Below, piece after piece: positions 3,286 to 35,631 of a stretch of DNA of 50,623 bases (position 1 is the stretch's first letter; each line of letters starts with the position of its first letter). The position numbers and the translations under genes were made by a program. The stretch is from the NCBI GenBank assembly GCA_964629225.1, contig CAZVQC010000006.1, positions 1-50,623 on the forward strand, written 5' to 3'. The stretch comes from an uncultured Ruminococcus sp. GTDB taxonomy: Bacteria > Bacillota > Clostridia > Oscillospirales > CAG-272. The notes beneath the pieces are model-generated. The model was not told where the DNA came from. It searched no databases and worked only from the letters and a program-made list of their open reading frames with translations.

Positions 3286-3620
3286 TGATATAAGCCGCTT
3301 TTTTGCCCTTTCAGCCATTTGTGACACTCGTCCATCGCTTCAAGTGCAAAAGTCGCTAAAAAGCCCTCAAAATGCCCAAAGAACAGCCATTCGTGTGCCA
3401 TGCCGTCGGCAGCAGAGTCTCACTGTCCACCGGAACGTAATCATCGTACCGACTTGACCAAAAACAGGACGTTTTCCTCCGGAAAACTCCATCAACAAGG
3501 AATGCGGATTTTCGCTCAGCGAAAAGCGACCGCACTGTCGCCGTAGGTGTCACATCACTCATCATTCGTCACCGTGCGTTTCGAAATATCACTTGAACCT
3601 TGCCGTACTGCTTCCGTTTT

Positions 3621-10607: not shown

Positions 10608-12011
10608 TTGTTGCAAATAGGAAAAAACAGCAAAAAAACCAAGAGGGATCTGGGATCTTCGGGGATCTGCGAGGGACCTCTTGCTGTCAATATGTTGGTC
10701 TACACGCTGCCGGTCATCGCATCCGGTGTGCTCCAGCTTCTTTTCAATGCGGCGGACTCCATAGTAGTGGGACGTTACGCCGACAGCACCGCCCTTGCGG
10801 CGGTTGGCTCCACCGGGTCACTTGTGTGCCTTATCGTCAACCTCCTCGTGGGGCTTTCGGTGGGTGCAAGCGTGGATATAGCCCACGCATGGGGCGCTCA
10901 TGACGACAGAGGTATCAGCGAATCCGTCCATACGTCTCTTTTGACGGCGTTCATAGGCGGTATTGCGGTCGGCATATTCGGCTTCTTTGCTTCAAGGGGA
11001 TGCCTTGAACTCATGTCGACACCGGCGGATATTATCGACCAGGCAACGCTCTATATGAAGATCTACTTCCTCGGTCTGCCCGCAATGATGGTTTACGATT
11101 TTTCCTCCTCGATACTGAGGAGCACGGGAGATACGAAGCATCCGCTGATATTCCTCCTTGCGGGCGGTGTTATCAACGTGGTGCTCAATCTTGTTTCCGT
11201 CATAGTGTTCGGAATGGGAGTGGCGGGAGTCGCCATAGCGACGGTGGTGTCTCAGATCATCTCCGCAGTGCTCTCCATCATCCATCTGATGAAGGTGGAC
11301 GGTCCCCACAGATTCAGTTTTTCAAAGCTCAAGATATCAAAAAACAGACTGAAAAAGCTCCTCGTAGTCGGCATACCGGCAGGACTTCAGGGGACGGTCT
11401 TCTCAATATCCAATGTGGTTATCCAGTCCTCCATCAATTCCTTCGATTCCGTCTGCGTCACCGGAAGCAGTGCGGGAAATAACATCGAGGGCTTCATCTA
11501 CATTGCCATGAACGCCTTTTACCACACCGCTCTCACTTTCGTAGGTCAGCACGTGGGAGCCGGGAAGACCAAGAGGTTGAAGAAGGTAGTCTACCTTTGT
11601 CTTGCCTATGTTACCGCCACCGGCGTGATACTCGGACTTCTCGCCTTTGTTTTCAAGATCCCGCTTCTTGAGATCTACATTCCGAACGATCCGGCGGCGG
11701 TGGTCCATGGAGTCCGCCGTATGACGGTCATATGCACCACTTACTTTTTGTGCGGACTGATGGATACCATGACCGGATGCCTGAGAGGGCTTGGCTCATC
11801 GGTCAGCCCCGCCGTGATAACCATGGTGGGAGCCTGCGGCATTCGGATACTTTGGATAATGACGGTATTTCAAATGTGGCACACCGAGACGGTGCTCTAC
11901 ATATCCTATCCGGTCTCATGGCTCCTTACCTTTGCGGCGGAGTTTGTCGCATATCTTATCGTCAAAAAGAAGCTTTTCAAAAAACTTTCGGCAATGCCCG
12001 ACCACAGATAA
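10608..12011 (+). CDS. MATE-family multidrug/oligosaccharide efflux transporter
   Basis: 467 aa and 12 predicted TM helices. N-terminus EGPL..N.L.Y.LP......LQ.L.N..DS.VVG is typical of the MATE family. Confidence 0.8.
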   Translation: MLQIGKNSKKTKRDLGSSGICEGPLAVNMLVYTLPVIASGVLQLLFNAADSIVVGRYADSTALAAVGSTGSLVCLIVNLLVGLSVGASVDIAHAWGAHDDRGISESVHTSLLTAFIGGIAVGIFGFFASRGCLELMSTPADIIDQATLYMKIYFLGLPAMMVYDFSSSILRSTGDTKHPLIFLLAGGVINVVLNLVSVIVFGMGVAGVAIATVVSQIISAVLSIIHLMKVDGPHRFSFSKLKISKNRLKKLLVVGIPAGLQGTVFSISNVVIQSSINSFDSVCVTGSSAGNNIEGFIYIAMNAFYHTALTFVGQHVGAGKTKRLKKVVYLCLAYVTATGVILGLLAFVFKIPLLEIYIPNDPAAVVHGVRRMTVICTTYFLCGLMDTMTGCLRGLGSSVSPAVITMVGACGIRILWIMTVFQMWHTETVLYISYPVSWLLTFAAEFVAYLIVKKKLFKKLSAMPDHR

Positions 12012-12036
12012 CATCAAAAGAAAGGTACTCACCGAT

Positions 12037-14157
12037 ATGAAGAACATTTTCAAGACAGCACCTTACGAAGAAAAAGCCAAGGCACTGCTCTCGCAGATGA
12101 CTCTCGAAGAGAAGATAGGTCAGCTCGTCCTCTACGGTTCAATGAGCAAATTGAATCTTGACGACATGAGGGCGGGTAAGATCGGAGCACTGCTCAATGT
12201 GCCGGACGTGGCAACGGCAAACAGAATGCAAAAGATAGCCTTCGAGGAGACGAGGCTCCATATTCCTCTTCTCATCGGTCACGACGTAGTTCACGGAGAC
12301 AGGACTCTGTTTCCCGCCCCCCTTGCGGGAAGCGCATCCTTCGACCTTGAAAGGATCGAGAACGCCGAGGCTGTGGCGGCTGAGGAAGCCTACCATGAGG
12401 GCATAAACTGGATCTACTCTCCCATGATAGATATCGCCCGTGATCCCCGTTGGGGAAGGATAGCCGAGGGAGCCGGAGAGGACAAGTTCTACGGTTCGAA
12501 GGTCGCCGCCGCAAGAGTAAGGGGATTCCAGAGAGTGAACCCGGAGACGGGATATCCCTTCACTGCCGCATGCTTCAAGCATTATTGCGGCTACGGTCTC
12601 AGCGAAGCGGGACGTGATTACGAGGCCTGCGACATCGGTGAGAGGACTCTCTACGGCGAGTATCTGCCGGTCTACAGGGCGGCTCTTGAGGCGGGCTCGA
12701 TGTCTTGCATGAGTTCCTTCAATACTTTGAACGGCGTTCCCGTCACCGGAAGTCGGTACTATCTCACCGAGCTTCTTCGTGACAAATGGGGCTTTGAGGG
12801 CTTCGTGGTGTCCGACTGGGAGTCGGTGATGGAGCTGATCTACCACAGAGTTGCCGCAAATGATGGAGAAAGCGCCCGTCTTGCCCTCACCGCAGGGTGC
12901 GATATGGACATGCATTCCGGTGTCTACGATAAGAATCTTTTGGCACTTGCGGAAAAAGATGAGGAACTGGTTTCTGCCATTGAGAAATCTGCATTCAGGG
13001 TGCTCTGTGTCAAGTTTGCTTTGGGTCTCTTCGAGGATCCTTACCGTGATGAAGACAATATGAAGTACTTCTTGACGGAGAAGGCCCGTGCCGCATCCCG
13101 TGACATGGAGGTCAACTGCGCAGTGCTCCTTAAGAACCGTGACGGAGTCCTCCCCATCAAGAGAGACGGAAAAAAGTGGCTTTTGACCGGCCCTCTTGCA
13201 GATGCGAAATTTGAAAACATGGGTCTTTGGGGCGGCAGAGGCGATCCTGCCACCGTCGTTACCGTGAAGGAAGCACTTGAGGCGGAAGAGGGCATCACCG
13301 TTGAATACCTCAAGGGCTGTGAATGTGAAGGAAACGACCGCTCCGGTATGAAGGCTGCCGGAAGGATAGCGGCCTCTTGTGACGGTATCATCTACGTTTG
13401 CGGCGAGCCCTGCCAGTGGGCAGGAGAGGGCGGCGGCAGAGTGGATATCTCCCTCGGCTCACCTCAAAGCGACTACCTTAAGATGCTCTCGTCCTTCAAG
13501 AAGCCTCTTGTTACCGTAGTTCTTTCCGCCCGTCCTTTGGTCATTGAAGACGTGGACGAAGCATCCGATGCGGTGCTCTTCGGTTGGAACGGCGGTGTTG
13601 AGATGGGCAACGGCATCAAGACACTTCTCATGGGGGATGAATCTCCTTCGGGAAGACTTCCCGTTACATTCCCCCGTCACACGGGTCAGATACCTCTTTA
13701 CTATGCCAACCTTTCCGGGGGAAGACCCCGTTGGAAGCATCCCAGACGTTACCGTGACTGCGAATCGTCCCCCCTCTACCCCTTCGGATACGGTCTTACT
13801 TACAGCACTGTAGAGTACGGAAACGTGGTGATCGAGAAGAACGAGATCGGGGAGGATGAAGAACTGAAGGCCTCCGTCACCGTTAAGAATACCGGAGACG
13901 TTGCCGTCAAGGAGGTAGTACAAGCCTACTTCAGAGACGTGGTATCGAGTATTGCGACTCCCGAAAAGCGGCTTTGCGGATTTGAAAAGGTGTCCCTTGC
14001 CCCCGGCGAGGAAAAGAACGTTACGTTCACCTTTGACCCCGGCGCATTCTCCTTCATCGGAGAAAAGACGGAGCCGGTCACCGAAAAGGGAGACTTCATC
14101 TTGTTCATAGGAGAGAATTCTCAAACGGAGAACAAAGCGGACTTCAAGATAGTTTGA
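12037..14157 (+). CDS. glycoside hydrolase family 3 beta-glucosidase
   Basis: About 707 aa with GH3 N-domain motifs (IGQL, HYCGYG, SDW) and a C-terminal fibronectin-like domain. No signal peptide, so likely cytoplasmic cellodextrin processing. Confidence 0.85.
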   Translation: MKNIFKTAPYEEKAKALLSQMTLEEKIGQLVLYGSMSKLNLDDMRAGKIGALLNVPDVATANRMQKIAFEETRLHIPLLIGHDVVHGDRTLFPAPLAGSASFDLERIENAEAVAAEEAYHEGINWIYSPMIDIARDPRWGRIAEGAGEDKFYGSKVAAARVRGFQRVNPETGYPFTAACFKHYCGYGLSEAGRDYEACDIGERTLYGEYLPVYRAALEAGSMSCMSSFNTLNGVPVTGSRYYLTELLRDKWGFEGFVVSDWESVMELIYHRVAANDGESARLALTAGCDMDMHSGVYDKNLLALAEKDEELVSAIEKSAFRVLCVKFALGLFEDPYRDEDNMKYFLTEKARAASRDMEVNCAVLLKNRDGVLPIKRDGKKWLLTGPLADAKFENMGLWGGRGDPATVVTVKEALEAEEGITVEYLKGCECEGNDRSGMKAAGRIAASCDGIIYVCGEPCQWAGEGGGRVDISLGSPQSDYLKMLSSFKKPLVTVVLSARPLVIEDVDEASDAVLFGWNGGVEMGNGIKTLLMGDESPSGRLPVTFPRHTGQIPLYYANLSGGRPRWKHPRRYRDCESSPLYPFGYGLTYSTVEYGNVVIEKNEIGEDEELKASVTVKNTGDVAVKEVVQAYFRDVVSSIATPEKRLCGFEKVSLAPGEEKNVTFTFDPGAFSFIGEKTEPVTEKGDFILFIGENSQTENKADFKIV

Positions 14158-14467: not shown

Positions 14468-15514
14468 TTATTCTGTATCTTCGTTTTGGAGGGAGGTTGC
14501 TTTCACTCCTGCGGTGGAGCGCTCCTTTGCGAGAGGGTTTTTAGCCATCGCCTTCCGCATTCCTTCGTCGCTTACGTGCGTGTAGATCTGGGTGGTGGTC
14601 AATTGTTCGTGTCCCAAAATGTCCTTCAGCACCCTAATGTCCACCTCTCCGGTCCGGTACATCAGTGTTGCCGCTGTGTGGCGCAGTTTGTGGGTGGAGT
14701 AGCCCTTGGCACGAAGGCCGGACTCGTCAAGGTATTTTTTGACTGTGTACTGTACCGTTTTCGGAGAGATACGCTTGCCTTGGTTGCTGATGAAAAGAGG
14801 CTTTGCGGGATCCTTGCATTTGGCGAGATATTCCCGTCTTTCCGGCAAATAGGCGGTTATTGCCGCCTTGCAGGCATCGTTCAGATAGATGAGCCTTTCT
14901 TTGTTGCCCTTTCCCAGTATCCGCATTTCGGTAATGTCCGGATCGATGTCTCTTTCACTGATGCCGCAGAGCTCGGAGAGACGGATGCCGCAGTTGAGAA
15001 AAAGAGTCAGCATGCAATAGTCACGGTTTCTCGTCTTGCTGGCAACGTCCCTGTCCACCGCCGCAAGAAGAGCGGTGCTTTCATCGACCGTGAGGAATTT
15101 CGGGAGGCTCTTTTTGTATTTCGGGGTCTCGATATCGACGGCGGGACTCTTTTCAAGTTTGTGGACCTTGTTGACGTAGTACCGGTAGAAGGCTTTTATG
15201 GATGAGAGTTTTCTGCTTCTGGTGCGCTCGTTATTGCATCTGGCATCCATTGAGTAGCTGAGATACTCGGTTATCTGCGACGGCTTCACCCTTTCGAAAA
15301 GTTCAAGGTTGACGTCCTTTATCGAGGTCTCGGCAAGAGTATCCTCGGTGGGGTCAAGTCCTGCCTCGGTAAGGCAGAGATATTTTGTAAAAAGCCTCAG
15401 ATCCGTCAGATACTCCTCCACGGTTTTGGCAGAGCATCCTTGGATGGCACGCTTGTAATTTGCAAATTCCCGAATGCAGTCGGGAAACTCGTCAATGTTG
15501 ATGTGGTAAGGCAC
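14468..15514 (-). CDS. tyrosine-type site-specific recombinase (XerC/XerD-like integrase)
   Basis: 348 aa with GTG start after GGGGGTGA. N-terminal SAM-like core-binding domain and a C-terminal catalytic domain with R..HxxR..Y (HKLRHTAAT, LGHEQLTTTQIYTHV). Confidence 0.8.
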   Translation of the reverse strand: MPYHINIDEFPDCIREFANYKRAIQGCSAKTVEEYLTDLRLFTKYLCLTEAGLDPTEDTLAETSIKDVNLELFERVKPSQITEYLSYSMDARCNNERTRSRKLSSIKAFYRYYVNKVHKLEKSPAVDIETPKYKKSLPKFLTVDESTALLAAVDRDVASKTRNRDYCMLTLFLNCGIRLSELCGISERDIDPDITEMRILGKGNKERLIYLNDACKAAITAYLPERREYLAKCKDPAKPLFISNQGKRISPKTVQYTVKKYLDESGLRAKGYSTHKLRHTAATLMYRTGEVDIRVLKDILGHEQLTTTQIYTHVSDEGMRKAMAKNPLAKERSTAGVKATSLQNEDTE

Positions 15515-15786
15515 GCTATCACCCCCGTACTGGCTATTTTAGCACGTTTTATGCGGTTCGTCAAGACAGCTCCTCCTTCGAAGAGGCGGGATAAAAAGAG
15601 GCGGAAGGCAGGTCTTTGGCTGTTTCGGTGGCCTTGCCTAACGGAGATATGAAAGGATGCAGGCGACGGTGACGTTCCGATCTCACTTGCGGCGACGGAT
15701 GAGTTTCAGCCGTTCGCCGAAGGCGTGTCCGGAGGAAACTCAGCCATCGCACCCGGTGCGCATCATGCTTTTTGGGGAAATACTAC

Positions 15787-15818
15787 TTAAAAAAAGCACC
15801 GACACGATCGGTGCTTTT
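15787..15818 (-). terminator. rho-independent terminator after tRNA-Leu
   Basis: GCACCGA-tcgtg-TCGGTGC followed by a T-run on the minus strand, directly 3' of the tRNA. Confidence 0.55.
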
Positions 15819-15903
15819 TGGTGCGGACGAAGGGATTTGAACCCTAACACCGAAAGGTACCGGATCCTAAATCCGGCGCGTCTGCCAGTTCCGCCACGTC
15901 CGC
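15819..15903 (-). tRNA. tRNA-Leu (anticodon TAG)
   Basis: 85 nt. GCGGACG/CGTCCGC acceptor stem; anticodon stem-loop CCGGA-TTTAGGA-TCCGG; long variable arm; GGTTCAAATCC T-loop; encoded CCA. Confidence 0.85.
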
Positions 15904-15913
15904 ATACCTTGTT

Positions 15914-15942
15914 ATGGTAGCACAGCGGAGGCGTTTTGTCAA
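15914..15942 (-). promoter_or_regulatory. putative tRNA-Leu promoter
   Basis: On the minus strand, TTGACA-N17-TACCAT ending 10 nt before tRNA position +1. Confidence 0.4.
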
Positions 15943-16280
15943 GATGCAAGGAGCGATTTTTACGCCTTGTCGGGGAAAGCGTGGGAGAGTTGGTAGAGAT
16001 CGATTTGAAGCGTGTTTGCACGAAAAGGCAAGTTCGGGGTGTGTCAAGATGAAAGTGATATTGCGTTTTACGCAGTGATGAATGATGCAAGATGCGGCGC
16101 TGCGGCGGCATTGCGGTCACTTTTCGCTCTGCGAAAAGCCGCATTGATAAGAGGACATATCCCTCCGTCATCGGGCTTCAACCGATGCCACCTCCCCTTA
16201 GGCAGAGGAGGCTTCGGTGAGGGATCGTTTTCTTGTCAATAGTGGGAAAGTGGGTGCGGCGGTACCGAGTCCACAATCGG

Positions 16281-17924
16281 TCATTCCCCGCTTTCGCTCT
16301 CGTGCCTATGGACTGCGGCGTAGCGCAGGAGCTGTTTTAGAGAGTGGACGCCGAGCTTCGAGTAGATATTCTTGTTATGGAAGCGGACGGTGGACTCTTT
16401 CAGGTCAAGGTAGGTGAGGATGTCTTTTACGGACTTGCCCTCGATGTAGAGCTCCAGTATCTCCTTTTCCTTGCCGGTGAGGGTACTGAGACCTATTTTG
16501 AAGTTTTCGTAGTCAAAGGGGTCTATCTCGTCCTTGCGGGAGTAGGCGAGGCGTTCGTTCTGCTTCACCGTCTCGTCAAATCTGCTTTGAAGCTCGTCGG
16601 CGGCACTTTCCGCATCGGATTTTTCGCGGCGAAGACGGTCAAGTTCCTCCTCGTTCATCCTATCTTGCTCGGCAAGGAATTTGAAAAGGTCATTTATCTC
16701 CGCCGAATACGTCGTGTCGTAGGAGTATTCTTTCTTTCGGATGCTGTCAAGGGCACTCTTGAGGGGCTTCAGATACCGCTTTGCAAAGAAGAGGGACAGT
16801 GCCACAAGGGATACGGTGAAGATGATCGCCAGAAGTACGATCCTCAGTACGTCGACGGATGCCATGTGCTGATAATCGGACTTCGGTATCAGCACACTTA
16901 TTGCCGAGGTGCATCTGCTGGGGCAGAGACGTATCTCCTCGGTAATGCCGATGTACGCCTCGGCCTCTCCCTGATATTCGGTGAGACCGCTGCCGAATGG
17001 AGCCCGTGTGAAGCTGCCGTAGGGCTCGGCGTAATAGGTATTCAAGATGCCGGCACAGAGGGTAGTGGACTCCGACAGAATGAGACCGTCACAGTCCTTT
17101 GAGATGCAGAACAACGCACGGTCAAGTTCGGAGGGCTGGGCGAATATCTGCTTGAAGTAGCCCTCGTTGAGCTCAAAGCCGCATAATCCGTAGAATTCCC
17201 CGTCACGTGACAGAAGGGGGACGGTCATCAGCATAACGTGCTGATCCGTGCCCGGAAGGAGCACTACGTCGGTGATGCGGTAGCTTTGGTTGAGGGGGAA
17301 GGATGCCTCTGACTTAAGCTCCCCGTAATTCGGGAACAGGTCCGTGTTGAACTCAAGCCTCCATTTTCGGTGGGGCATACAGTTGTGATCCTTGCCGGTC
17401 TTGGAAAGGCCGCGGTAGAGCAGCACCCGATTGTCGGATGCCTCAAGGCTGTTGCGCTGAAGGTAGATGCCGGTGCGGGAGGTGTCGGCGTTTTCCACGT
17501 TTGGATTGACATGGGCATCAAGCATTACGAAGACACCGGTGCAGTCGGCTTCAAACAGCTTGTGCCGCGCCGTGTTGATCAGCAATTCCTGAAGGTCTTC
17601 GATGCGTTCCTCGGAGCCGTTCAGATCCCCGATGGTGATATTATTGTCTGTAAGATAGCTTTCAAGTATTTTCGTAGTTTCGTCGGACAGCTGAACGCTC
17701 ATGACGGCAAGACCGTCATAGTAAGTATCTATCTGCCTCTCAAACAGCTCGGTCTGAAATCGGAGAGTATCCGCCAAACGTTTCTTGGTGCCGGTAAAGT
17801 TACCGATGAGGAACAGCCCCGCAATGAGCAGTGCGCAGAGCAGCAATGCCAAGATGCACATATAGCCGAAAAGCTTCCGCCTGAGAGTCAGTTTCCTGCT
17901 TGAATTATAGTCGGACAGTTTCAT
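16281..17924 (-). CDS. membrane-bound LuxR-family one-component regulator with extracytoplasmic sensor domain
   Basis: 547 aa. TM1 (res ~20-41), a ~300-aa periplasmic-side domain, TM2 (res ~352-375), a cytoplasmic coiled-coil, and a C-terminal LuxR/FixJ-type HTH (LTGKEKEILELYIEGKSVKDILTYLDLKESTVRFHNKNIYSKLGV). Confidence 0.7.
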   Translation of the reverse strand: MKLSDYNSSRKLTLRRKLFGYMCILALLLCALLIAGLFLIGNFTGTKKRLADTLRFQTELFERQIDTYYDGLAVMSVQLSDETTKILESYLTDNNITIGDLNGSEERIEDLQELLINTARHKLFEADCTGVFVMLDAHVNPNVENADTSRTGIYLQRNSLEASDNRVLLYRGLSKTGKDHNCMPHRKWRLEFNTDLFPNYGELKSEASFPLNQSYRITDVVLLPGTDQHVMLMTVPLLSRDGEFYGLCGFELNEGYFKQIFAQPSELDRALFCISKDCDGLILSESTTLCAGILNTYYAEPYGSFTRAPFGSGLTEYQGEAEAYIGITEEIRLCPSRCTSAISVLIPKSDYQHMASVDVLRIVLLAIIFTVSLVALSLFFAKRYLKPLKSALDSIRKKEYSYDTTYSAEINDLFKFLAEQDRMNEEELDRLRREKSDAESAADELQSRFDETVKQNERLAYSRKDEIDPFDYENFKIGLSTLTGKEKEILELYIEGKSVKDILTYLDLKESTVRFHNKNIYSKLGVHSLKQLLRYAAVHRHESESGE

Positions 17925-17938
17925 GGTACGTCACCGCC

Positions 17939-19264
17939 TTACTTGACGTTCTTGAACTGCTCCCAAAGCTCGTCTGCCAGTTTATCGGCGCTTTCGCCGT
18001 TATTATAGCGCTCCGGCATGGTCTTCTGTTCTTCCCTGAGCGAGTCGTACAGTGAGTAGATCCTGTTGTAATAGCCTACGAAGGAAGGCTCACGGACGGC
18101 GGTCGCCCTGTCGTTCACTTCGGCTATGGCATTGTAGAGATTCTTATAGGACTTCGACACGAAACCGTGATCTCCGATCTTGTCGAAGGACGCCTTGTTT
18201 GACGGCATATATCCCGTTTCAATGCAGAATTCAAGGTTTCTTTCCGCCTCGGTGAGCCAACGGGCAAATACCTCGGCGGCCTCTGCCTTTTGGTCGGTGG
18301 TCTTGTAGGCGCAGAGACCCACGCCCGCCTGAGTTACAAGCAGGTCGGTGCCCTCAGCCGCAGGAGGCGGCATTATTTGAAGATCCATAGGCTCGGTGGT
18401 GTTGTCCGGATAGGTCACCGTGTCGTTGTAGTAGAGTATGGATGCGGTGGAGCCCAGTCCCGCCATGACTTCGCCGGTCATCACCTGCGTGTTGGAATAG
18501 AGGTCGGAAACGATGATATGTCCCTTGGCGATGGCGGTGGCAAACTTCATGAAGGATGCCTTGAAAGCCTCGTTTTCAAAGTCGTACCAGCCCTCGGCGG
18601 TGTAGAAGTCGTCATGACCCTGCTCCATGGCGTTCAGCTCAATGGCACGGATGGGAAAATCCAGGGCGCAGAAGGGCTTGCCGTCTGAGTACTCATAGTA
18701 TTTTTCTGCGGCATCGAGGAAGCCATCCCAAGTGGAAAGGCTGTCATAGGTGACTCCGGTGGCAGCGGAGAAACGTTCAAATTGAGTTCCCGCAACGAAG
18801 AGAAGATGAGTGGATTTCGAAACGGGGAATACGGACAGATGCCCGTCCACCATACCGTCCTCTAAAAATTCCGGTACATAGTTATCAAGCTCCTCGTCGG
18901 TGAAGACGTCCTTCCAATCCAAAAGGTTCTCCGCTCCGAGCTCTGCGGCATTGTTGTTGTGGCAAAAGAACAGGTCGGGCATCTCCATGGCGCCTGCCTC
19001 TCCTTTGTGTGCGGAGAGGAGCTTTTCCCCGATCTGTGCCGAGGAGGACATGGAGGATACGTTGATTATGATACCTTGCTCTTTGCCTACCGTGCGGTTA
19101 AATTCCTCCACAAGTCTGTTCATGGGGGAATCTGCCTGCTCACCGTACACGTGCCACATGGTGAGGGTAACGGGTTCCTTCGGGTCAAGAAGGGTCTTTT
19201 GACATCCGCAGAAGACGAGCGCCGTCATAAAGGCTGTCAAGATGATCGCAATGATCTTTTTCAT
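17939..19264 (-). CDS. extracellular solute-binding lipoprotein (ABC family-1 sugar SBP), orphan
   Basis: 441 aa with signal peptide and lipobox (LVFC-GC). No permease or ATPase genes adjacent. Its stop is 15 nt upstream of the LuxR-type gene on the same strand. Confidence 0.75.
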   Translation of the reverse strand: MKKIIAIILTAFMTALVFCGCQKTLLDPKEPVTLTMWHVYGEQADSPMNRLVEEFNRTVGKEQGIIINVSSMSSSAQIGEKLLSAHKGEAGAMEMPDLFFCHNNNAAELGAENLLDWKDVFTDEELDNYVPEFLEDGMVDGHLSVFPVSKSTHLLFVAGTQFERFSAATGVTYDSLSTWDGFLDAAEKYYEYSDGKPFCALDFPIRAIELNAMEQGHDDFYTAEGWYDFENEAFKASFMKFATAIAKGHIIVSDLYSNTQVMTGEVMAGLGSTASILYYNDTVTYPDNTTEPMDLQIMPPPAAEGTDLLVTQAGVGLCAYKTTDQKAEAAEVFARWLTEAERNLEFCIETGYMPSNKASFDKIGDHGFVSKSYKNLYNAIAEVNDRATAVREPSFVGYYNRIYSLYDSLREEQKTMPERYNNGESADKLADELWEQFKNVK

Positions 19265-19356
19265 GGGAAACCTTCTGAGTTATCGTACTGTTGCGAAAAC
19301 AGCAATGAATTGGGTGCCGAAATACGAAAAACACGAATAAATCGAATTTTTTTCAT

Positions 19357-19394
19357 TTTGTCCCCCCAAAACAGCGGTTTTTGAGGGGGACAAA
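19357..19394. promoter_or_regulatory. 10-bp inverted repeat in a divergent promoter region
   Basis: TTTGTCCCCC-N17-GGGGGACAAA. The right arm overlaps a weak -35 (GGGACA) spaced 17 nt from TATAAT at ~19410-19415. Confidence 0.4.
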
Positions 19395-19643
19395 CAAACA
19401 ATATATCCGTATAATATAGTTGCAAGAGTCTCAAAGGAGGATACAGGCTCTTCTTTGTCTCAAGATAAACAGAGGTATCCTCGGTCGGGGAAGATCCCCG
19501 ACAACGGCTTCACCTGCACGTCAATGAAGTGCGAAGCACGCCTTTATTTATTATTTTATCATAATTCTATTCGCAAGTCAAGTAAAACAAGCCGCAGTCC
19601 CGGTACTGCGGATACGGAAATATTTCCGAGAGGAGGAGAGAGC

Positions 19644-20012
19644 ATGGCAGAGCACACAACTGCCGATTACAGAACGGTTGCAGACAGCGGCGGCACAAGA
19701 TACCGATTCTACTGTCAGGTGTCGGGAGCGTTTGCCTGCGCAACGAAGCCCTATCCCGGAGAGGATGCCGAGGCGGAACTTCGGGATGCATGGGAGAGCG
19801 AGGGCAAAAACCACTTCAACCTTTGTCACCGATGCGGAAGGTGGGTGGTGGATGCGGTGTACAACCCGGAGGTGTTCGAGTGTACCGACTGCGCCACCTT
19901 TGAGCATGAGACGAGGTATTGCAAGTCCTGCGGCAAAAGGGTGGATGCGGATGTGCGATTTTGCCCGTTCTGCAAGAGCAGGCTCCATTACGAAGGGGGT
20001 GAGGCATTATGA
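19644..20012 (+). CDS. small zinc-ribbon protein
   Basis: 122 aa with ATG after GAGAGGAGGAGAG. Carries cysteine pairs CHRCG...CTDC and CKSCG...CPFC. Confidence 0.6.
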   Translation: MAEHTTADYRTVADSGGTRYRFYCQVSGAFACATKPYPGEDAEAELRDAWESEGKNHFNLCHRCGRWVVDAVYNPEVFECTDCATFEHETRYCKSCGKRVDADVRFCPFCKSRLHYEGGEAL

Positions 20013-20305
20013 CGGTGAAGGCCAAGTGGGAACAGCTTGAAAGATACGGCTTCGGCCCCAACGTGATGAAGCGTACCAGGGTGTGCCCGTCCTGCGGAAG
20101 GATGGTGACGAACACCTGCAGCTCCTGCCCCGATTGCGGAATGCGCCTTATGAAAAAGACCCTGTGGGACAGGTACAGAGAGCGGCATATGTGCTGTGAC
20201 AGATGCGGCACGGTGCTGGCGGTGGATTCAAGATACTGCCCCCATTGCGGAAGAGCACTCTACGTGAAAAAGGCTCTTCGCTCCGAAAAGAAAAGCAATG
20301 CGTAA
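20009..20305 (+). CDS. small double-zinc-ribbon protein
   Basis: 98 aa with ATGA overlap onto the previous gene. Two CxxC..CxxC ribbons (CPSCG..CSSCPDCG; CDRCG..CPHCG). Confidence 0.6.
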   Translation: MTVKAKWEQLERYGFGPNVMKRTRVCPSCGRMVTNTCSSCPDCGMRLMKKTLWDRYRERHMCCDRCGTVLAVDSRYCPHCGRALYVKKALRSEKKSNA

Positions 20306-20339
20306 CGAATCGAAGAACGATCTGAAGGAGGATCAAAGA

Positions 20340-23300
20340 ATGAAGACCAAGAGACCCCTGAGAGCAGTCAGTTTCATTCTCACCCTTATCATGCTGGTGG
20401 GAATGCTTCCTCTGTCCGCCATCTCATCCATGGCGGCGATACCGGCAGTGGACAGCTCCGTATGGACACTTGTGGGAACGGACAGTAAAGCGTCTAATGC
20501 GGCGCGCTACACCGAGCTTAAAGACGCTCTTGAGAATACCGCCGTTTCTCTGATCAATACGGCGTATGTCCGCCTTGAAAGAGATATCAAATTGGATGCG
20601 GACCTGTCGAAGAGCAGTTGTGTCTTTACAGAGGACTCGATCACTATAGTGGTCACCCGAAAAGTCGTGTTTGACTTGAACGGACACACCTTAAAGGCTA
20701 AAGTCTACGACGGAACCGGAGAGTATCTCGATCCCGTTTCACTGACCATGTTTGAGATCAGAGACGGTGGAAAGCTCACGATAGTTGACAGCAAGGGCAA
20801 GGGCAAGATAGCTACCGACAGCTGGATCTCGGAGCCCCACGTGGACCTGGGTGCCGCCGGTGACATCAATGTCTTTGATATGTTCAAGATAAAAGGAGGC
20901 GGAGAGCTCATTATCAACGCTTCCGGCGCCGAGTTTGAATGCGGTCGCTCAAAGCAGCAGTGGGTAACACGTGCATACACGGTCGATAGAGAACCTGGTG
21001 GCGTTCCCGATGCATCCGACTTTTTTACGGGAAATATTCGCGGTCAGGCCTGCGGCTCCGTTTTTATCGCAGAGTCCAACAGTAAGATCACCGTTGCCGG
21101 AGGAAAGTTTCTTGCAAGGGGATACAGAGGTGTCTATCACCGAGGCTACGGCGATCCTTGTGCGGTCTTTGATGTAAGTGCAAATACTGTCGTCGACATC
21201 ATTGACGGTACATTCTACGGTAAGGGCTGCGCCGACGTGTTCGATGCGGATAAAACTGCCAAGATCACGATTCGTTCGGGTGTGTTCGACGTTTTCAAGG
21301 TAGATAAGGTTCCCGTTTTAAATTACCCGTACCATGAAGACCTTCTCAGCTATTACAGGTACACCCGCTTTACAAACGGCAGATACGGCGAGGTCGGCAT
21401 CCCCGACAGCGCCCTTGATCCGGACAACACCGATATCATAATCGGCGGACACAATTACAGCGAGGACGAGGATAAGGATAATTCCGCAAGCGATACTCAC
21501 AAGACCGTTACGGTAAAACCGAAGACGGGCGCCAAGACTCCCGACGATAGGATCATTGTGGAAAATGAAAACGGAATCGGTGCCTGGAACGGCAGCGACT
21601 CCTACGTTATCAATGCAAAGAACGGCAGAGCCTATTTCTCCGACAGCGACAGAGCGTACCTTGACGACGACCTTCAAAAGGATACGACAGGTTACTTCCT
21701 TTGGACCTTCACTCTGTACGATGCCAAAACGGGTGAAAAATGCGATGCGGAGCCGATGCAGGTGGCAAGTCTCGGTTCCGATGACACGATATCCATCGAT
21801 CTGAAGGACTATAAACAGACAAATACCACTACCTTCAAGTACTATTTCGAAAATGACGGGATCAGCAGTTACAAAATAAAGGCAGAGGTGGAAGAGGTCT
21901 GGGCAGGCCACCATACATACAAACCGAAGTTCCATAACTGGTTCTATTTCAACGAGTACCGGTCTTTTCTCGGTATCGACGCCAACGAGGCGGCGGAGAT
22001 ACTTGACTTCACCGTGACACCGAGAACGCCGAGCTCCGATTGCACATCCTACACCCTCAACACGGAAAACGAAGAGGGGATGGAGTATTATTTCGAATTC
22101 TTGGGAAATAATTCCAAAGGCGCTGTGACCTGTAACAGCTATTATCGCTACTGCAAGGTGGACACGGCGGGAAAAACGGTGCTGTCTTCGAAGCAGGAGA
22201 TAGCGACCGGCACGGAATACGGTGAACCCATTGAATTTATTGTCCCCCCGAAGCATGGCGGTCCCGTGTACGTTACGGTGGAATACGTATTCAGAAGAAG
22301 CATCAACTCTTCAGCTGCGGTAGACGTTGTGACCATAACCAAGACACATCTTGCCTATGCACTTGACTTCATGACATACGATGTCCTCGCAGCGGATGAG
22401 GCAATAAGAACGGGCCGTGTCTCCGCTTCCTACGGTAATTACGATACGGTGGAGCTTTATGATGGCGAGACTGTCCTCATAAAGCCCAACATCAGCGCCG
22501 ATATGGCAAAAACGGACGTGATCAACCCGATAACGGGCAAGACCTTCTCCAAGAGCGATATCAAGTGGCAGCTCTCCACCGGACTTGACGATTACGGCAA
22601 TCACGTTTGGAATGATGTTCCCGCTCGTGAGATAGTCAATCAGGAGATCGACGGCGTAACTCTCCCATGTGTTAAGACCAACAGAACGGCGTGGTACAGA
22701 ATGAGTTACGTTTGGAACGGCGAGACTTACCATTCGCCTCAGTCGCTTCTTGTGAAGGGCGTTTCCTACGAAAAGAACCGCATTGCCACCGTGATCCGAA
22801 GCGACAGATTCACCGGTATATACGGCAAGGGCGAAAACAAATTGTATCTTGACGTCAATAAGGATGCCGACTGGAACACCGGAGGCTGCTCCGTGGACTC
22901 CATACGTATCTTCCTGATGGAAAAGCCCGATGGAGCGAACCCCGGCAGTACGATGAAGACACCGAGTAGCTTCGCGACCGGTCAAAACGGTCTGATCGAG
23001 CTTATCAATACCGACAGCTTCTTCGAAAATGAGGCGGGCGCCGTAACGGGTATGTACACCTTCCGTGTCAGGGTTACGGGTACCAATGCCGACGGCTCCA
23101 CGTACTACGTTACTGCGAACTGTGACGTCTGGTACAGTCAACAGACCACCGACTTAAATATCTACGTGAACGGCATGCCGATCTACAAGCATGATGAGAT
23201 CAACATTCCATGTATCCTGACGGCGGATACCAATCTGTTCGACTTCACCTGCGACTATTATCCGCTGAACACCATGGGCAACGGCATTGACAAAAGTTCT

Positions 23301-25979
23301 GTCAAATGGACGTCCTCCGACAGCGGTGTGCTTCGTATCGACGAGAAGACGGGTGAAGGATTGGCCCTCAGACCCGGAACCGTAACGGTCAGGTGCTCGT
23401 GGAAGGATTCCGACGGAGCATCTCACTCAAGATCTGCGAAGGTCAGCGTTCCCATAGCCGGATTTGAGCTTAACAAGATCGACTATGCAAGCTACGTCGG
23501 CAGCAACCTTCCTTACATTTCGGGAGAAATTGCCACCGTTAAATCCGTATGGTCCTGCGGCGGTGAGAAGGTGACCGTAGATCCCGGTCGTTATATCGGG
23601 GTAAGACTCACAAGCTACAACGGCTGGGGCGAGGCCTCCACAGCCTTCGGTGAAGCAGTCGTGGAATATAACAACAACGCCTCCTACGGCTACACTGTGA
23701 CTGCGAAGGCGGACGACGGTTACTTCTTCGCAGCAGAGGCCGAGGCGGACGTTTTTGAGACCGAATACTACGTGGACAAGGCACAGCTTCGGTGCAACGG
23801 TCTTGACGACGGAGCGATACTGCCGGCGGAGGACTACGACGCTTACACCGAGTGGAACACTCCCTACACCGTGGAGATCGATTACGTAAACAAGACGTAC
23901 AACGAGTACTACAAGGGCGGAATGTACGTAAGACTGTCCCACGTTCCCGTGATTGAGGATCCGGGTGCGGTCTATCTCAAAGAGGTCAATGTTACGGTAA
24001 GCGAGCCCGCAGTGGGTGACAACCGCTATGAGGGCACCACCTACAACCCGATGAATGAGTATCTGGTACTGAACGTCAGCGGTATCCTCGGAAACTGCAA
24101 GGACTCTTCAACTCACAGCTACGTTTCAAAGCTTGATATGAGCGATATAAGGGGCACCGGAAAAGCCTATGACGATGCCTCCTCCGAAGAAAAGGGCGCA
24201 CTTACCATCGAGTACATGAGCGTGTGGAATACCACCGACTACGTGACATGGAACAAGCCCACCAAGACTTACGAAAACGGCATCTACGTTCACGACGTGG
24301 GTCTCTGCTTTGACAGTGACGCCATGGCGGGCATGAATGTCTTCGTGGCAAAGGATGCCAAGATATTCGTAAACGGCAGAGAAATGGATTTTGCCTCCGT
24401 ATACTACGGCTCCGACGGTACGAGCAGCGTAAACTTCAAATACTACTTTGACGTGGGCGAGGTGGAGACCGTCTCCGTCGTAAGTGTGACCGGCATCAAT
24501 GCTCCCCTTCAGGGAGAGCTTCCCTCGGATGTGGGGGATGCTACAGTTCTCGTGGGCGGTGTGGAGAGCGACTCTGTCTACATTTCCAAACTCATATGGT
24601 TCGTGGATGCCAACGGCAACGGAGCCTATGATGAGGGTGAGGAGGCGCAAGCTCGCTACTACGGTTTCAACGGCTCATATCGTGGGGACAGCACTCTTTG
24701 GTATGACGGCAGATTTTTGGCAGGTGTTTCTTATAGCCTGTGCGTTGAGCTTCAGGCAGACGGTGTCCGTCTTGACTCGAATGTTGTCGTATCCTTCAGC
24801 GGTCTTGAAAAGAACTTGATCGGCAAGATGAGTGGGGTATTCACATTCCCCGCAGACAATATTATACGCACAGTTACGATCGATGCTTTGACAACGGACA
24901 GTGCAGCGGGCAAGTTCCTTGACCCGTTTATGCTTACCTTTAGCGGTAAGACATCGGGATTCTCCCTCAACTGGACATACAATGAATTTACCGAGTGCGA
25001 CGATCCTACGGCAAGTGTCGGCGAATTTATCGGGGATGTTATCACCTACAGTTACGATGATATCAAGCTCCCCGGAGGCAAAACATGGCTTCGTGCTATG
25101 ATAATGCCGGAGGACGGTTTTCAGATCAGCAATAACTTCAAGTTCCTTGTAAACGGGACCGATGCTTGCGAAGAGTTCGCACCGGGCAGAAGCAATATTG
25201 AGACCTGCGTTAATTCGGGCGGAATCTACATGAGTTGTTATATGTTCACGGTACCCAAGACCGGTGCGGACGTTACCGTCAACGTGACGGGAGCATCCGG
25301 CGGCAAGGTGAATGCACAAAAGACGGTACAGCTCATTGAGAGCGGTTACAGCGAGGCGGCATATGAGAGTGTGATCGCCGCCGACGGTACGAGTTGCGTT
25401 ATTTCGGGCGTTCCCGACGGCACGTACAAGGTGAAGGTGATGGCAGCGGGCTATGTTACCGCCGAGACTACGGTGACGATCAACGGCTCCGATGCCACCG
25501 TGAACGTGACTTTGAGGACCGTTTCCACAACCGCAGCGGTGAAGGGAACTGTCTACAGCAAGGGCAGTGCCGCGGATCCGGTCACTCTGAGACTCACCTT
25601 GGTGGGCAAAAGTGAGCCGTCATACGAGGTGGTAGTTACCGGAAACAAGGCTTCCTACTCCATCGGAAACGTTGAGAACGGCACCTACGTTCTCACCGCA
25701 ACCAAGAACGGTCACTCGGACTACAGTATCATGGTAACCGTGGACGGTACGGACCTGACACAGAACATCACCCTGTCACTTCCCGGCAGCCTTATGGGAG
25801 ACGTGGACGGAGACGGCAGGATAACCAACAAGGACCTGCTCCTCATGAGACGTTACCTCCTTATGGTAGTGGGAGAGAGTGAGACCTTCTGTTTTGACAA
25901 TGCAGACCTTGACTACGACGGCAGGATAACCAACAAAGACCTTCTCAAGCTCCGCAAGATAATAATGGGAGTTGAGTAA
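20340..25979 (+). CDS. giant secreted dockerin-bearing protein (beta-helix-like N-region, two carboxypeptidase-regulatory-like domains, type-I dockerin)
   Basis: 1879 aa from the ATG after GAAGGAGGA. Signal peptide MKTKRPLRAVSFILTLIMLVGMLPLSA. C-terminal duplicated Ca-binding dockerin repeats GDVDGDGRITNKDLLLMRRYLL / DLDYDGRITNKDLLKLRKII. Confidence 0.85.
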   Translation: MKTKRPLRAVSFILTLIMLVGMLPLSAISSMAAIPAVDSSVWTLVGTDSKASNAARYTELKDALENTAVSLINTAYVRLERDIKLDADLSKSSCVFTEDSITIVVTRKVVFDLNGHTLKAKVYDGTGEYLDPVSLTMFEIRDGGKLTIVDSKGKGKIATDSWISEPHVDLGAAGDINVFDMFKIKGGGELIINASGAEFECGRSKQQWVTRAYTVDREPGGVPDASDFFTGNIRGQACGSVFIAESNSKITVAGGKFLARGYRGVYHRGYGDPCAVFDVSANTVVDIIDGTFYGKGCADVFDADKTAKITIRSGVFDVFKVDKVPVLNYPYHEDLLSYYRYTRFTNGRYGEVGIPDSALDPDNTDIIIGGHNYSEDEDKDNSASDTHKTVTVKPKTGAKTPDDRIIVENENGIGAWNGSDSYVINAKNGRAYFSDSDRAYLDDDLQKDTTGYFLWTFTLYDAKTGEKCDAEPMQVASLGSDDTISIDLKDYKQTNTTTFKYYFENDGISSYKIKAEVEEVWAGHHTYKPKFHNWFYFNEYRSFLGIDANEAAEILDFTVTPRTPSSDCTSYTLNTENEEGMEYYFEFLGNNSKGAVTCNSYYRYCKVDTAGKTVLSSKQEIATGTEYGEPIEFIVPPKHGGPVYVTVEYVFRRSINSSAAVDVVTITKTHLAYALDFMTYDVLAADEAIRTGRVSASYGNYDTVELYDGETVLIKPNISADMAKTDVINPITGKTFSKSDIKWQLSTGLDDYGNHVWNDVPAREIVNQEIDGVTLPCVKTNRTAWYRMSYVWNGETYHSPQSLLVKGVSYEKNRIATVIRSDRFTGIYGKGENKLYLDVNKDADWNTGGCSVDSIRIFLMEKPDGANPGSTMKTPSSFATGQNGLIELINTDSFFENEAGAVTGMYTFRVRVTGTNADGSTYYVTANCDVWYSQQTTDLNIYVNGMPIYKHDEINIPCILTADTNLFDFTCDYYPLNTMGNGIDKSSVKWTSSDSGVLRIDEKTGEGLALRPGTVTVRCSWKDSDGASHSRSAKVSVPIAGFELNKIDYASYVGSNLPYISGEIATVKSVWSCGGEKVTVDPGRYIGVRLTSYNGWGEASTAFGEAVVEYNNNASYGYTVTAKADDGYFFAAEAEADVFETEYYVDKAQLRCNGLDDGAILPAEDYDAYTEWNTPYTVEIDYVNKTYNEYYKGGMYVRLSHVPVIEDPGAVYLKEVNVTVSEPAVGDNRYEGTTYNPMNEYLVLNVSGILGNCKDSSTHSYVSKLDMSDIRGTGKAYDDASSEEKGALTIEYMSVWNTTDYVTWNKPTKTYENGIYVHDVGLCFDSDAMAGMNVFVAKDAKIFVNGREMDFASVYYGSDGTSSVNFKYYFDVGEVETVSVVSVTGINAPLQGELPSDVGDATVLVGGVESDSVYISKLIWFVDANGNGAYDEGEEAQARYYGFNGSYRGDSTLWYDGRFLAGVSYSLCVELQADGVRLDSNVVVSFSGLEKNLIGKMSGVFTFPADNIIRTVTIDALTTDSAAGKFLDPFMLTFSGKTSGFSLNWTYNEFTECDDPTASVGEFIGDVITYSYDDIKLPGGKTWLRAMIMPEDGFQISNNFKFLVNGTDACEEFAPGRSNIETCVNSGGIYMSCYMFTVPKTGADVTVNVTGASGGKVNAQKTVQLIESGYSEAAYESVIAADGTSCVISGVPDGTYKVKVMAAGYVTAETTVTINGSDATVNVTLRTVSTTAAVKGTVYSKGSAADPVTLRLTLVGKSEPSYEVVVTGNKASYSIGNVENGTYVLTATKNGHSDYSIMVTVDGTDLTQNITLSLPGSLMGDVDGDGRITNKDLLLMRRYLLMVVGESETFCFDNADLDYDGRITNKDLLKLRKIIMGVE

Positions 25980-33088: not shown

Positions 33089-33204
33089 TGCTCACCTCCA
33101 CCCCGAAAACGTCGCATCATCGACTCGGATGCGGATGACATTTGTTAACGGTCGCCCGCGGGGCGTCTTAAATAGAATTTTTTTACTGAGAAAGGGCAGA
33201 AATT

Positions 33205-34617: not shown

Positions 34618-34685
34618 TAAAAAGTAAGTCGAGGAGAGATCCCCGATTCGGGGATCTCTCGCAAAATAAAATACAGGAGAAAATC

Positions 34686-35624: not shown

Positions 35625-35631
35625 AATATCG

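Follow-up and report, generated by a model that had tools for sequence, protein, structure and literature searches.

A transporter-less solute-binding lipoprotein, a membrane-tethered LuxR-type regulator and a structured RNA that look like a surface-to-gene switch in gut Clostridia

Adjacent genes for a solute-binding protein (SBP) and a LuxR-type regulator lie in the window analysed here (the whole stretch of 50,623 nt) and, together with a structured RNA, look like a surface-to-gene switch for nearby genes, which encode zinc-ribbon proteins, giant surface proteins and membrane-stress functions. We consider it rather probable that the pair is an SBP-dependent, membrane-tethered one-component regulator and that the whole forms a three-part switch from surface to promoter. 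A lipid-anchored SBP of the MalE/CUT1 type, whose transporter would have been lost, would act as a dedicated ligand receptor. It would report to a LuxR-family regulator, dimeric and tethered to the membrane, by way of that protein's dCache-type ectodomain; from there the signal would reach the C-terminal helix-turn-helix (HTH) along the second transmembrane segment (TM2) and a long helix in the cytoplasm, with no kinase or phosphorelay, and the HTH would bind the inverted repeat at 19357-19394. The operon switched in this genome would contain genes for two zinc-ribbon proteins, two giant dockerin proteins and probably the SPFH/TPM/Zn-ribbon cluster, while a structured RNA between the face-to-face promoters would add a second input.

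An obligate gene pair without transporter genes

The SBP gene (17939-19264, reverse strand) encodes a 441-aa protein that matches SBP_bac_8 (Pfam, E 1.7e-25) and has the N-terminal sequence MKKIIAIILTAFMTALVFCGC. Its Cys21, within an L-x-G-C lipobox consensus, is invariant (50 homologues compared). In searches with the AF2 model (pLDDT 88.8) the best Foldseek matches are oligosaccharide SBPs and one dinucleotide SBP, at 14-20% identity, and the fold is akin to those of cellodextrin and beta-glycoside binders. All the features of a CUT1-type SBP are present: the SBP_bac_8/1 domain, a lipoprotein signal and a MalE-like fold. Judged from the predicted fold, a carbohydrate is a plausible ligand, and the ligand class is probably oligosaccharide.

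The regulator gene (16281-17924, reverse strand) follows directly. Both open reading frames are present as the original prediction had them, and the close spacing that it described is also seen; the gap, however, is 14 nt and not 15. The SBP gene is immediately upstream of the regulator gene in 72 of 77 mappable loci, and the spacing is a translational-coupling distance in all contexts, including mobile elements; the two-gene unit is found intact in unrelated neighbourhoods and on a conjugative element. The earlier view that the two genes are co-transcribed without transporter genes is thus upheld, and across relatives the pair is obligate. Since the same layout recurs in around 100 independent loci, the arrangement did not arise by chance. 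A relative is encoded in at least 243 species genomes; there are at least 318 full-length homologues of the regulator, and its ectodomain is common to 510 clusters (50% identity). The family is widespread among Oscillospiraceae, Ruminococcaceae and Lachnospiraceae of the gut and rumen, and it is testable in three cultured carriers, Lawsonibacter celer NSJ-47, Massiliimalia massiliensis and Butyricicoccus pullicaecorum DSM 23266.

No ABC permease was found in the window when ORFs of at least 200 aa with at least five predicted TM segments were screened; the sole ORF to pass was a MatE gene (10608-12011), and the pair of BPD_transp_1 genes expected of a CUT1 operon is absent. Nor does an ABC permease adjoin the pair in 67 related loci. 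Candidate permeases near loci L084 and L091 were rejected, as they are not ABC permeases. A lone MalK/MsmK-like ATPase is encoded at 47617-48729, 28 kb from the pair. Because this gene is unlinked, the absence of an ATPase beside the pair is uninformative, whereas the absence of permeases is informative.

The SBP could instead be an ordinary uptake protein for permeases encoded elsewhere, sharing the MsmK-like ATPase, with the regulator controlling only SBP expression. Firmicute CUT1 systems share an unlinked ATPase, of which there is one here, and our view covers the window, with the rest of the genome outside it. Yet there are the 67 loci with no ABC permease adjoining the pair, the two-gene unit moves intact to unrelated neighbourhoods and a conjugative element, and the co-variation described below involves the part of the regulator outside the cytoplasm; we judge this explanation very improbable.

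A two-TM regulator with a dCache-like ectodomain

The regulator (547 aa) consists of TM1, a dCache-like ectodomain, TM2, a long helix and a LuxR/GerE HTH. There are two hydrophobic segments, within aa 16-46 and aa 353-385, and the position of the K/R-rich flanks, N-terminal and beyond TM2, agrees with a topology in which both termini are cytoplasmic. The AlphaFold model (pLDDT 84.5) agrees with the two-TM layout derived from the sequence, in keeping with the prediction of two TM helices around an extracytoplasmic domain and a cytoplasmic LuxR HTH. The HTH (aa 481-536; 16317-16484, reverse strand) is a C-terminal, four-helix GerE-type domain (PF00196; E 1.7e-15, above the Pfam threshold). No HisKA, HATPase or receiver domain was found in the regulator or in neighbouring genes.

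In the predicted structure, the ectodomain (aa 42-358; 16851-17801, reverse strand) has a long N-terminal helix and two tandem PAS-like alpha/beta modules between the two TM segments, as is characteristic of dCache domains; a Cache-like ectodomain had been guessed at before. The fold is revealed by structure prediction only, as no Pfam model, those of the Cache clan included, matches even at E≤10, and NCBIfam and PDB phmmer searches also gave no match. The lack of a Cache-model match despite the dCache fold indicates that the ectodomain is a new sequence family with that fold.

Divergence of the SBP follows that of the ectodomain (r 0.90) far more closely than that of the cytoplasmic half of the regulator (r 0.58), and the partial correlation between SBP and ectodomain is 0.85. 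This pattern of sequence divergence lends indirect support to a putative physical, ligand-modulated contact between the SBP and the ectodomain. Alternatively, the regulator may bind the ligand directly in the membrane-distal dCache pocket, and the SBP may be a co-expressed accessory (one that scavenges or buffers the ligand or acts as a negative modulator) or no more than the first gene under regulation. Such direct sensing is doubtful; it sits poorly with the strict pairing at translational-coupling distances in every context, mobile elements included, and with an SBP whose divergence follows the ectodomain and not the rest of the regulator, and a transporter-less SBP has no obvious non-signalling role.

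Comparison with known systems

The favoured reading, in which the SBP signals to the ectodomain, has its closest parallels in the ‘three-component systems’ LuxP-LuxQ, HptA-HptS, XylFII-LytS-YesN and CuaD-CuaSR, where a transporter-less or dedicated SBP likewise stands beside a two-TM sensor and reports ligand to its extracytoplasmic domain, a dCache-like one in LuxQ and HptS (PMC8050422, PMC10384115). As in systems of the LuxPQ and XylFII-LytS type, the SBP gene here adjoins the sensor gene without cognate permease genes. The output of the three-component systems, however, is a histidine kinase and a response regulator, and the regulator here has neither. In Vibrio cholerae, the SBP CBP also controls a membrane-embedded direct DNA binder with a dCache-like sensor domain, ChiS (PMC8050422, PMC12704726), but ChiS is of the hybrid histidine-kinase type with a non-LuxR DNA-binding region, whereas the present regulator is a plain TM-dCache-TM-HTH protein; further, CBP is an SBP_bac_5 protein and part of a transporter locus, unlike the SBP_bac_8 protein described here. 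NspS-MbaA of the same species likewise combines an SBP_bac_8-family SBP with a dCache-like membrane sensor (PMC8050422); its output is through GGDEF/EAL domains (c-di-GMP) and its ligands are polyamines, while the SBP here is a MalE-type protein of about 440 aa.

A C-terminal LuxR HTH on an N-terminal membrane sensor is also found in DadR, HcdR and CadR of Eggerthella lenta, one-component systems of a gut anaerobe that control adjacent genes (PMC9734109). These have 10-12 TM segments, no large ectodomain and no SBP, as opposed to the two TM segments, dCache ectodomain and obligate SBP seen here. ToxR and CadC combine sensing outside and DNA binding inside in one polypeptide with no phosphotransfer, as is proposed for this regulator, but they have an N-terminal winged HTH, a single TM segment and a C-terminal periplasmic domain, so that the order is reversed with respect to the present protein with its LuxR-type HTH.

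Chemoreceptors, histidine kinases, c-di-GMP enzymes and Ser/Thr kinases are all documented to receive signals from SBPs (PMC8050422). If the proposed mechanism is correct, a dedicated SBP acting on a kinase-less, membrane-tethered LuxR regulator would be a new output class of such signalling, and no route from a ligand outside the cell to a promoter could be shorter. No account of the SBP-regulator family or of its associated RNA was found in the literature; the family is common among poorly understood bacteria of the gut and rumen, in which it adjoins giant adhesin-like or cellulosomal proteins and the SPFH/TPM module. Only tentatively would we go further and suggest an unrecognised signalling class, in which a transporter-less SBP passes its ligand state to a membrane dCache-LuxR protein and a new riboswitch-like RNA adds gating; this would be a two-input switch, exchanged by mobile elements among gut Clostridia, that deploys giant surface proteins and a membrane-maintenance module.

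A candidate operator and face-to-face promoters

The inverted repeat (19357-19394) has arms of 15 nt each (19357-19371 and 19380-19394) that are 87% complementary and separated by an 8-nt spacer. It is a real feature of the promoter region of the zinc-ribbon/dockerin operon, where it had been predicted, and its position is conserved; most loci have an equivalent at the same position, after a TTTGTCCCC motif. There is also a correlation between arm type and the sequence of the regulator's recognition helix, with TTGATAGG and GGTGGGG among the box types. From the arms, the positional conservation and this correlation, the repeat is a candidate operator for the regulator. Its main reading as an RNA hairpin or terminator was rejected, since neither strand has a U-tract after the repeat, the positions at which the two arms differ are consistently the same from locus to locus, and co-variation with the repeat is seen in extra direct copies and in the recognition helix.

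The right arm overlaps the -35 element of a promoter-like site, GGGACA-17-TATAAT (19387-19415, forward strand), that points toward the zinc-ribbon operon and is conserved in relatives; of 59 unique loci, 42 have GGGACA-N16-18-TATAAT with no more than one mismatch in each hexamer, and its median distance from the SBP ATG is 122 nt. As this -35 element is weak, the divergent promoter is possibly activator-dependent, and binding of the HTH to the overlapping repeat would be expected to turn on the divergent operon; the direction of regulation that we infer is thus activation.

The intergenic region also holds a second promoter, facing the first, and a conserved structured RNA, both of which were absent from the original prediction. 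The second promoter, of the sigma-70 type, belongs to the SBP-regulator operon; it reads TTGACT-17-TAAAAT with TG (19553-19581, reverse strand), lies around 280 nt upstream of the SBP ATG, and is found in 51 of 59 unique loci with at least 10 of 12 positions matching. The candidate operator is inside the long 5' leader of this operon, and therefore binding should feed back on expression of the pair.

A structured RNA between the promoters

The RNA (19419-19547, tentatively reverse strand) lies between the two promoters; it is about 130 nt long, with multiple helices and a long-range GGGGUA:UACCCU pairing. RNAalifold alone gave only the P2 hairpin, and the remaining helices were drawn by eye and tested afterwards; compensatory changes are seen in 23 of 37 pairs (alignments A3/A4), 85% of alignment cells pair as against 44-53% when slid, and none of 500 shuffles reached the observed values. 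The covariance model matches with 81 bits (E 3e-17) and the z-score of the window fold is -3.9. The RNA occurs only at the SBP-regulator operon, and Rfam 15 has no match to it at E≤1 in positions 15400-20400 of the window or in five related loci. With its strong covariation and no Rfam match, it is a candidate for a new class of cis-regulatory RNA.

The role of the RNA is inferred, and its strand is assigned tentatively. Counts of G-U versus A-C in P2, P2i and the long-range helix are 42 versus 5 for the SBP-sense strand, mostly from one U-G column, whereas in P4 they are 4 versus 9, favouring the opposite strand; MFE and consensus-structure energies give no strand preference.

The divergent genes

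The zinc-ribbon and giant dockerin genes that were predicted to diverge from the pair are real. Zinc-ribbon protein 1 (122 aa; 19644-20012, forward strand) matches DUF7575/Zn_Ribbon_1/DZR in Pfam, and the start of the gene for zinc-ribbon protein 2 (98 aa, a double zinc ribbon; 20009-20305, forward strand) overlaps its stop (ATGA). After 34 nt, with no predicted terminator between, comes giant secreted dockerin protein 1 (20340-25979, forward strand), with a signal peptide, PEGA, CarboxypepD_reg and a C-terminal Dockerin_1, and then its paralogue, giant secreted dockerin protein 2 (26277-31892, forward strand; 36-42% identity). The SPFH/TPM/Zn-ribbon cluster (32171-39985, forward strand), identified by Pfam and gene order and syntenic with relatives, encodes a lipoprotein, an SPFH (Band_7_1) protein with a Zn finger, a DUF4428 and DZR protein, a lipoprotein, DUF4428, a Zn-ribbon protein with a TM segment (364 aa), TPM and DUF6935.

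The two small zinc-ribbon genes and the SPFH/DUF4428/Zn-ribbon/TPM/DUF6935 cluster are the divergent partners that relatives conserve. A homologue of zinc-ribbon 1 diverges from the SBP gene in 23 of the 51 loci with room for it and in most of 24 metagenome loci. The genes after the zinc-ribbon pair vary between giant surface proteins (dockerin here, InlB-repeat elsewhere) and the cluster, which in L004 and other loci is directly divergent from the pair with the same gene order. In other lineages the genes after the zinc-ribbon pair encode giant surface proteins of an unrelated kind (InlB-B-repeat/Flg_new), or the giant-protein position is taken by a second SBP-regulator pair. No full-length homologue of the dockerin giants was found in 80 related genome loci, where the sole match is to their dockerin-bearing C-terminus, in L029 (37%); metagenome loci gave weak partial matches in five (24-28%). 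The idea that the dockerin genes are a purely lineage-specific and irrelevant insertion is softened by the unrelated giants at the same position elsewhere, from which control of large surface proteins appears to be a recurring theme and not a universal one.

These observations bear on the original proposal that the pair is a plant-polysaccharide sensor switching cellulosomal genes. The giant dockerin genes here begin 34 nt after the zinc-ribbon genes with no predicted terminator, and the SBP fold is like those of cellodextrin and beta-glycoside binders. Against this, the dockerin giants have no full-length homologue in the 80 related genome loci, the partners that are conserved encode zinc-ribbon and SPFH/TPM proteins and not CAZymes or scaffoldins, and in other lineages the same place holds InlB-repeat giants of a non-cellulosomal kind or another SBP-regulator pair; a dedicated cellulosome sensor is unlikely. 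Of the substrate-sensing switch first proposed, the pair, the topology and the repeat at the promoter stand, with SBP-ectodomain co-variation in its favour, and the reading as a cellulosome switch is upheld only in part.

The domain composition of the cluster is like that of Bacillus subtilis YdjG/YdjH/YdjI (SamGHI) when the published descriptions are compared; these PspA-associated proteins comprise a Zn-ribbon membrane protein, a second membrane protein and a soluble SPFH protein with a C-terminal zinc finger (PMC8581546, PMC9239133). No pspA gene was seen. YdjH has the TPM fold. Elsewhere in the window, the ORF at 15740-16171 is spurious, as it overlaps a tRNA-Leu.

The solute-binding protein and its membrane regulator

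Both open reading frames have the limits given in the original prediction: the solute-binding lipoprotein (SBP) gene at 17939-19264 and the LuxR-type regulator gene at 16281-17924, each on the reverse strand. The close spacing reported between them was also found, the gap being 14 nt rather than 15 nt. The SBP (441 aa) matches SBP_bac_8 (E 1.7e-25) and has a signal peptide and lipobox, in which Cys21 is invariant across 50 homologues with the consensus L-x-G-C. In a structure search its predicted model (pLDDT 88.8) is similar to the MalE/CUT1 oligosaccharide binders; the matches include a cyclic maltosyl-maltose binder, the cellodextrin binder CbpB, beta-glycoside and sophoro-oligosaccharide binders, and likewise a Thermus dinucleotide binder. 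Since identity to all of these is just 14-20%, and a dinucleotide binder is among them, the ligand class that this likeness in fold points to is suggestive, not established.

Hydropathy predicts that the regulator (547 aa) crosses the membrane twice, within aa 16-46 and aa 353-385, and the flanks follow the positive-inside rule; a GerE/LuxR HTH occupies aa 481-536. In the AlphaFold model (67 homologues used, pLDDT 84.5) TM1 is followed by a long helix and then two alpha/beta modules (aa 46-347), and the fold of the ectodomain (aa 42-358) is recognised as dCache; TM2 extends as a helix as far as aa 399, and between it and the HTH comes another long helix (aa 404-460). The predicted layout, an ectodomain between two TM helices with a LuxR HTH, is borne out by all three lines of analysis (hydropathy, GerE match and model). 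Within the extracytoplasmic dCache domain C128 and C248 are invariant and C334 nearly so, alongside an invariant segment, H185-R186-x-W188; these residues could make up a ligand-binding, redox or metal site.

The pair is a conserved unit lacking a permease

At least 318 full-length relatives of the regulator were found, none of which carries a name. A query with the ectodomain only against 1.8 billion representatives returned 510 clusters; in nearly all of them the proteins measure 510-560 aa and carry the domain in a constant position, and GerE was at the C-terminal end in 10/10 distant members (24-29% identity). When each species was represented by a single genome, a scan gave 243 genomes with a relative; the carriers belong mainly to the Oscillospiraceae, Ruminococcaceae, Lachnospiraceae and other Clostridia, with Lawsonibacter celer, Massiliimalia massiliensis and Butyricicoccus pullicaecorum as cultured carriers. 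Seven different annotated contexts all have the SBP gene directly 5' of the regulator gene, with no permease nearby. The SBP was intact and immediately upstream in 72 of the 77 loci where it was mappable (frame broken in 5), and the gap across the fetched loci is typically 8-17 nt.

It had been proposed that the SBP is without permease partners, and the whole window indeed holds no ABC permease. A crude screen for ORFs of 230-360 aa with at least five hydrophobic segments, within 5 kb of the pair, flagged permease-like ORFs at 2 of 67 loci; the four candidates were rejected, three being TMEM164- or PTS-type and one having no Pfam match. A stand-alone MalK/MsmK-type sugar ABC ATPase (47617-48729, forward strand; ABC_tran, OB_MalK and TOBE_2), adjoined by neither permease nor SBP, is probably the shared energiser of several CUT1 transporters. 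The pair's missing ATPase is therefore uninformative, whereas its missing permeases are informative. That the SBP serves in uptake with distant permeases is very improbable, since such a role is hard to square with a portable two-gene unit.

Across 64 distinct pairs, the pairwise divergence of the SBP correlates with that of the regulator ectodomain at r 0.90 and with that of the cytoplasmic half at r 0.58. With the cytoplasmic half controlled for, SBP and ectodomain keep a partial correlation of 0.85, and the reverse, of SBP and cytoplasmic half, is -0.12; the control is imperfect, because alignment of the linker is poor and the pairs are non-independent. Such co-variation between sequences is what a physical or functional interface predicts. 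The main rival explanation, in which the dCache pocket binds the ligand directly and the SBP is an accessory, appears unlikely.

The logic of the pair is that of LuxP-LuxQ, HptA-HptS, XylFII-LytS and CuaD-CuaSR, and its direct, membrane-based DNA binding recalls ChiS-CBP (PMC8050422, PMC10384115, PMC12704726). A kinase/response-regulator output was tested for at the pair and is absent, which places it outside the LuxPQ, HptA-HptS, XylFII-LytS, CuaD-CuaSR and ChiS families. The regulator is also unlike ToxR/CadC and the 10-12-TM LuxR regulators of Eggerthella (PMC9734109). The partners in a review of SBP signalling are chemoreceptors, kinases, c-di-GMP enzymes and Ser/Thr kinases, with no HTH one-component regulator among them (PMC8050422). 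The pair is a variation on known SBP-dependent sensing, plus an additional RNA element; literature searches found neither the SBP-regulator family nor this element described.

The intergenic control region

Around 350-460 nt 5' of the SBP gene were aligned from many loci, and the order of elements is constant whatever gene stands opposite. The SBP operon has a near-consensus sigma-70-type promoter far upstream of the gene (19581-19553, reverse strand), matching at 10 or more of 12 positions in 51 of 59 unique loci. On the opposite strand is a promoter-like GGGACA-N17-TATAAT with a weak -35 (19387-19415, forward strand), present in 42/59 loci at a median of 122 nt from the SBP ATG. Since the two promoters point towards each other, their 5' leaders would overlap.

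The inverted repeat noted in the original prediction is real, with arms at 19357-19371 and 19380-19394, beside and overlapping the weak -35 of the divergent promoter. Its arms are of the types CCxTCAA/TTGATAGG, CCCCCC/TTGRGGGG, CCCCACC/GGTGGGG and CCCTACC/GGGTAGG; in many loci the right arm recurs as one or two extra direct copies closer to the SBP start, and these change in concert. Because arm type changes with the cognate regulator's recognition helix (STVRFHN[KR]NIY, STLK[FY]HNHN[IM]L, SNGLKYHNKNIY), a correlation that clade structure could also give, we read the repeat as the regulator's putative operator, positioned as a class II activator site would be. As it lies inside the pair's own leader, autoregulation would be possible.

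Between the two promoters sits a structured RNA element of ~130 nt (19419-19547, modelled on the reverse strand; covariance model, 81 bits, E 3e-17). Five helices were tested in 24 aligned loci, and the hairpin P3, variable in sequence and length, was added later. P1 pairs GGGG with CCCC, P2 carries an inner stem, a long-range pairing joins GGGGUA to UACCCU, and P4 pairs GCAAG with CUUGC around a loop bearing UAUACCCUCCUU, which is anti-Shine-Dalgarno-like. In the alignment 85% of cells pair, against 44-53% with partners slid; compensatory double changes occur in 23 of the 37 pairs tested, and 0/500 shuffles matched the observed values. P1 and P4 are tentative, as little variation lies behind them; if P4 forms, the long-range pairing is a pseudoknot.

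All 36 matches to the covariance model in 954 kb of related loci are just 5' of the SBP gene. An exact-pattern metagenome scan found the motif in 24 further loci, in the zinc-ribbon/SBP intergenic region save in one very short contig, including loci whose pairs are merely 24-38% identical to the window regulator. The element is missing from a substantial minority of loci that retain promoter and repeat. Its strand is uncertain: by G-U versus A-C counts, three helices point to the SBP strand (42 vs 5, a single column dominating) and P4 to the other strand (4 vs 9), and folding energies are neutral. With no match in Rfam 15, it is a candidate new cis-regulatory RNA on this comparative evidence, apparently undescribed so far. 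The frame of the first zinc-ribbon gene is open upstream to a TTG at 19455, giving a 185-aa ORF (19455-20012, forward strand) that crosses the complement of the element; relatives have a stop at that place, so the opening is probably chance, and the ATG at 19644, preceded by a strong RBS, is adopted as the start.

The best-supported model, which we consider probable, is a switch of SBP, dCache domain and HTH acting on the divergent promoter. The lipoprotein would bind an extracellular ligand, probably an oligosaccharide, and dock onto the dCache ectodomain; the signal would pass via TM2 and the long helix to an HTH dimer, which on the repeat would activate the divergent promoter and feed back on its own leader, and the RNA element would supply a second input.

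Divergent genes and variable cargo

Two groups of divergent genes are conserved. One is a translationally coupled pair of small zinc-ribbon genes (19644-20012 and 20009-20305, forward strand). The other is a syntenic cluster, present in the window at 32171-39985 (forward strand), which encodes a lipoprotein, an SPFH protein that bears a zinc finger at its C-terminus, DUF4428 proteins, a membrane protein with a Zn-ribbon, TPM and DUF6935; in the related genome locus L004 it directly abuts the pair with identical gene order. Zinc-ribbon genes or the SPFH/TPM cluster occur at 35 of the 51 loci with enough flank. In B. subtilis, the zinc-ribbon membrane protein YdjG and the soluble SPFH protein with a zinc finger, YdjI, together with YdjH bring PspA to the membrane (PMC8581546, PMC9239133). 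The cluster is like YdjG/YdjH/YdjI in domain composition, and its SPFH (Band_7_1) protein (33205-34617, forward strand), which has a low-complexity linker rich in Gln and Ala and, at its C-terminus, four CxxC zinc-ribbon repeats, shares the unusual layout described for YdjI; since no pspA gene was seen here, this is a resemblance only.

The giant dockerin proteins, encoded in tandem (20340-25979 and 26277-31892, forward strand), are paralogues of 36-42% identity whose signal peptides are almost the same, and ~1650 aa of each are without a Pfam match. Neither has a full-length homologue in 80 genome loci, where the only match (37%, in L029) is to the dockerin-bearing C-terminus; five metagenome loci give weak partial matches. 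Unrelated giant surface proteins with InlB-B-repeat/Flg_new domains follow the zinc-ribbon pair in four other loci (L001 3254-7498, L084 1126-4578, L089 2-2167 and, in L. celer, L090 2-4480; all reverse strand). These are 73-88% identical to one another; the adjoining regulators are each only about 41-50% identical to the window regulator, and L001, which also carries a sortase, is part of a type IV secretion element. The cargo may have spread horizontally in recent times. In L077 (Butyricicoccus pullicaecorum DSM 23266; 1663-4647, reverse strand), and likewise in L074, a second, paralogous SBP and dCache-LuxR pair lies downstream of the zinc-ribbon genes in place of the giants, so that two sensor pairs flank one zinc-ribbon operon.

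The cargo after the zinc-ribbon genes is thus variable, repeatedly with very large surface proteins. Against the proposal that the pair switches cellulosomal genes, the dockerin giants lack full-length homologues in the 80 genome loci and the conserved partners are the zinc-ribbon and SPFH/TPM genes. A cellulosome switch specifically is improbable, and would be at best a lineage-specific special case. The original observation is confirmed, and its interpretation partly supported.

The left flank of the pair

Just downstream of the regulator is a tRNA-Leu(tag) (15819-15903, reverse strand), whose 3' end is adjoined by a XerC/D-like tyrosine recombinase (14468-15514, reverse strand); an ORF at 15740-16171 was rejected as spurious because it overlaps the tRNA. 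Recombinase and tRNA look like the edge of an integrated element running leftwards, within which would lie a GH3 gene (11932-14157) and a MatE gene (10608-12011).
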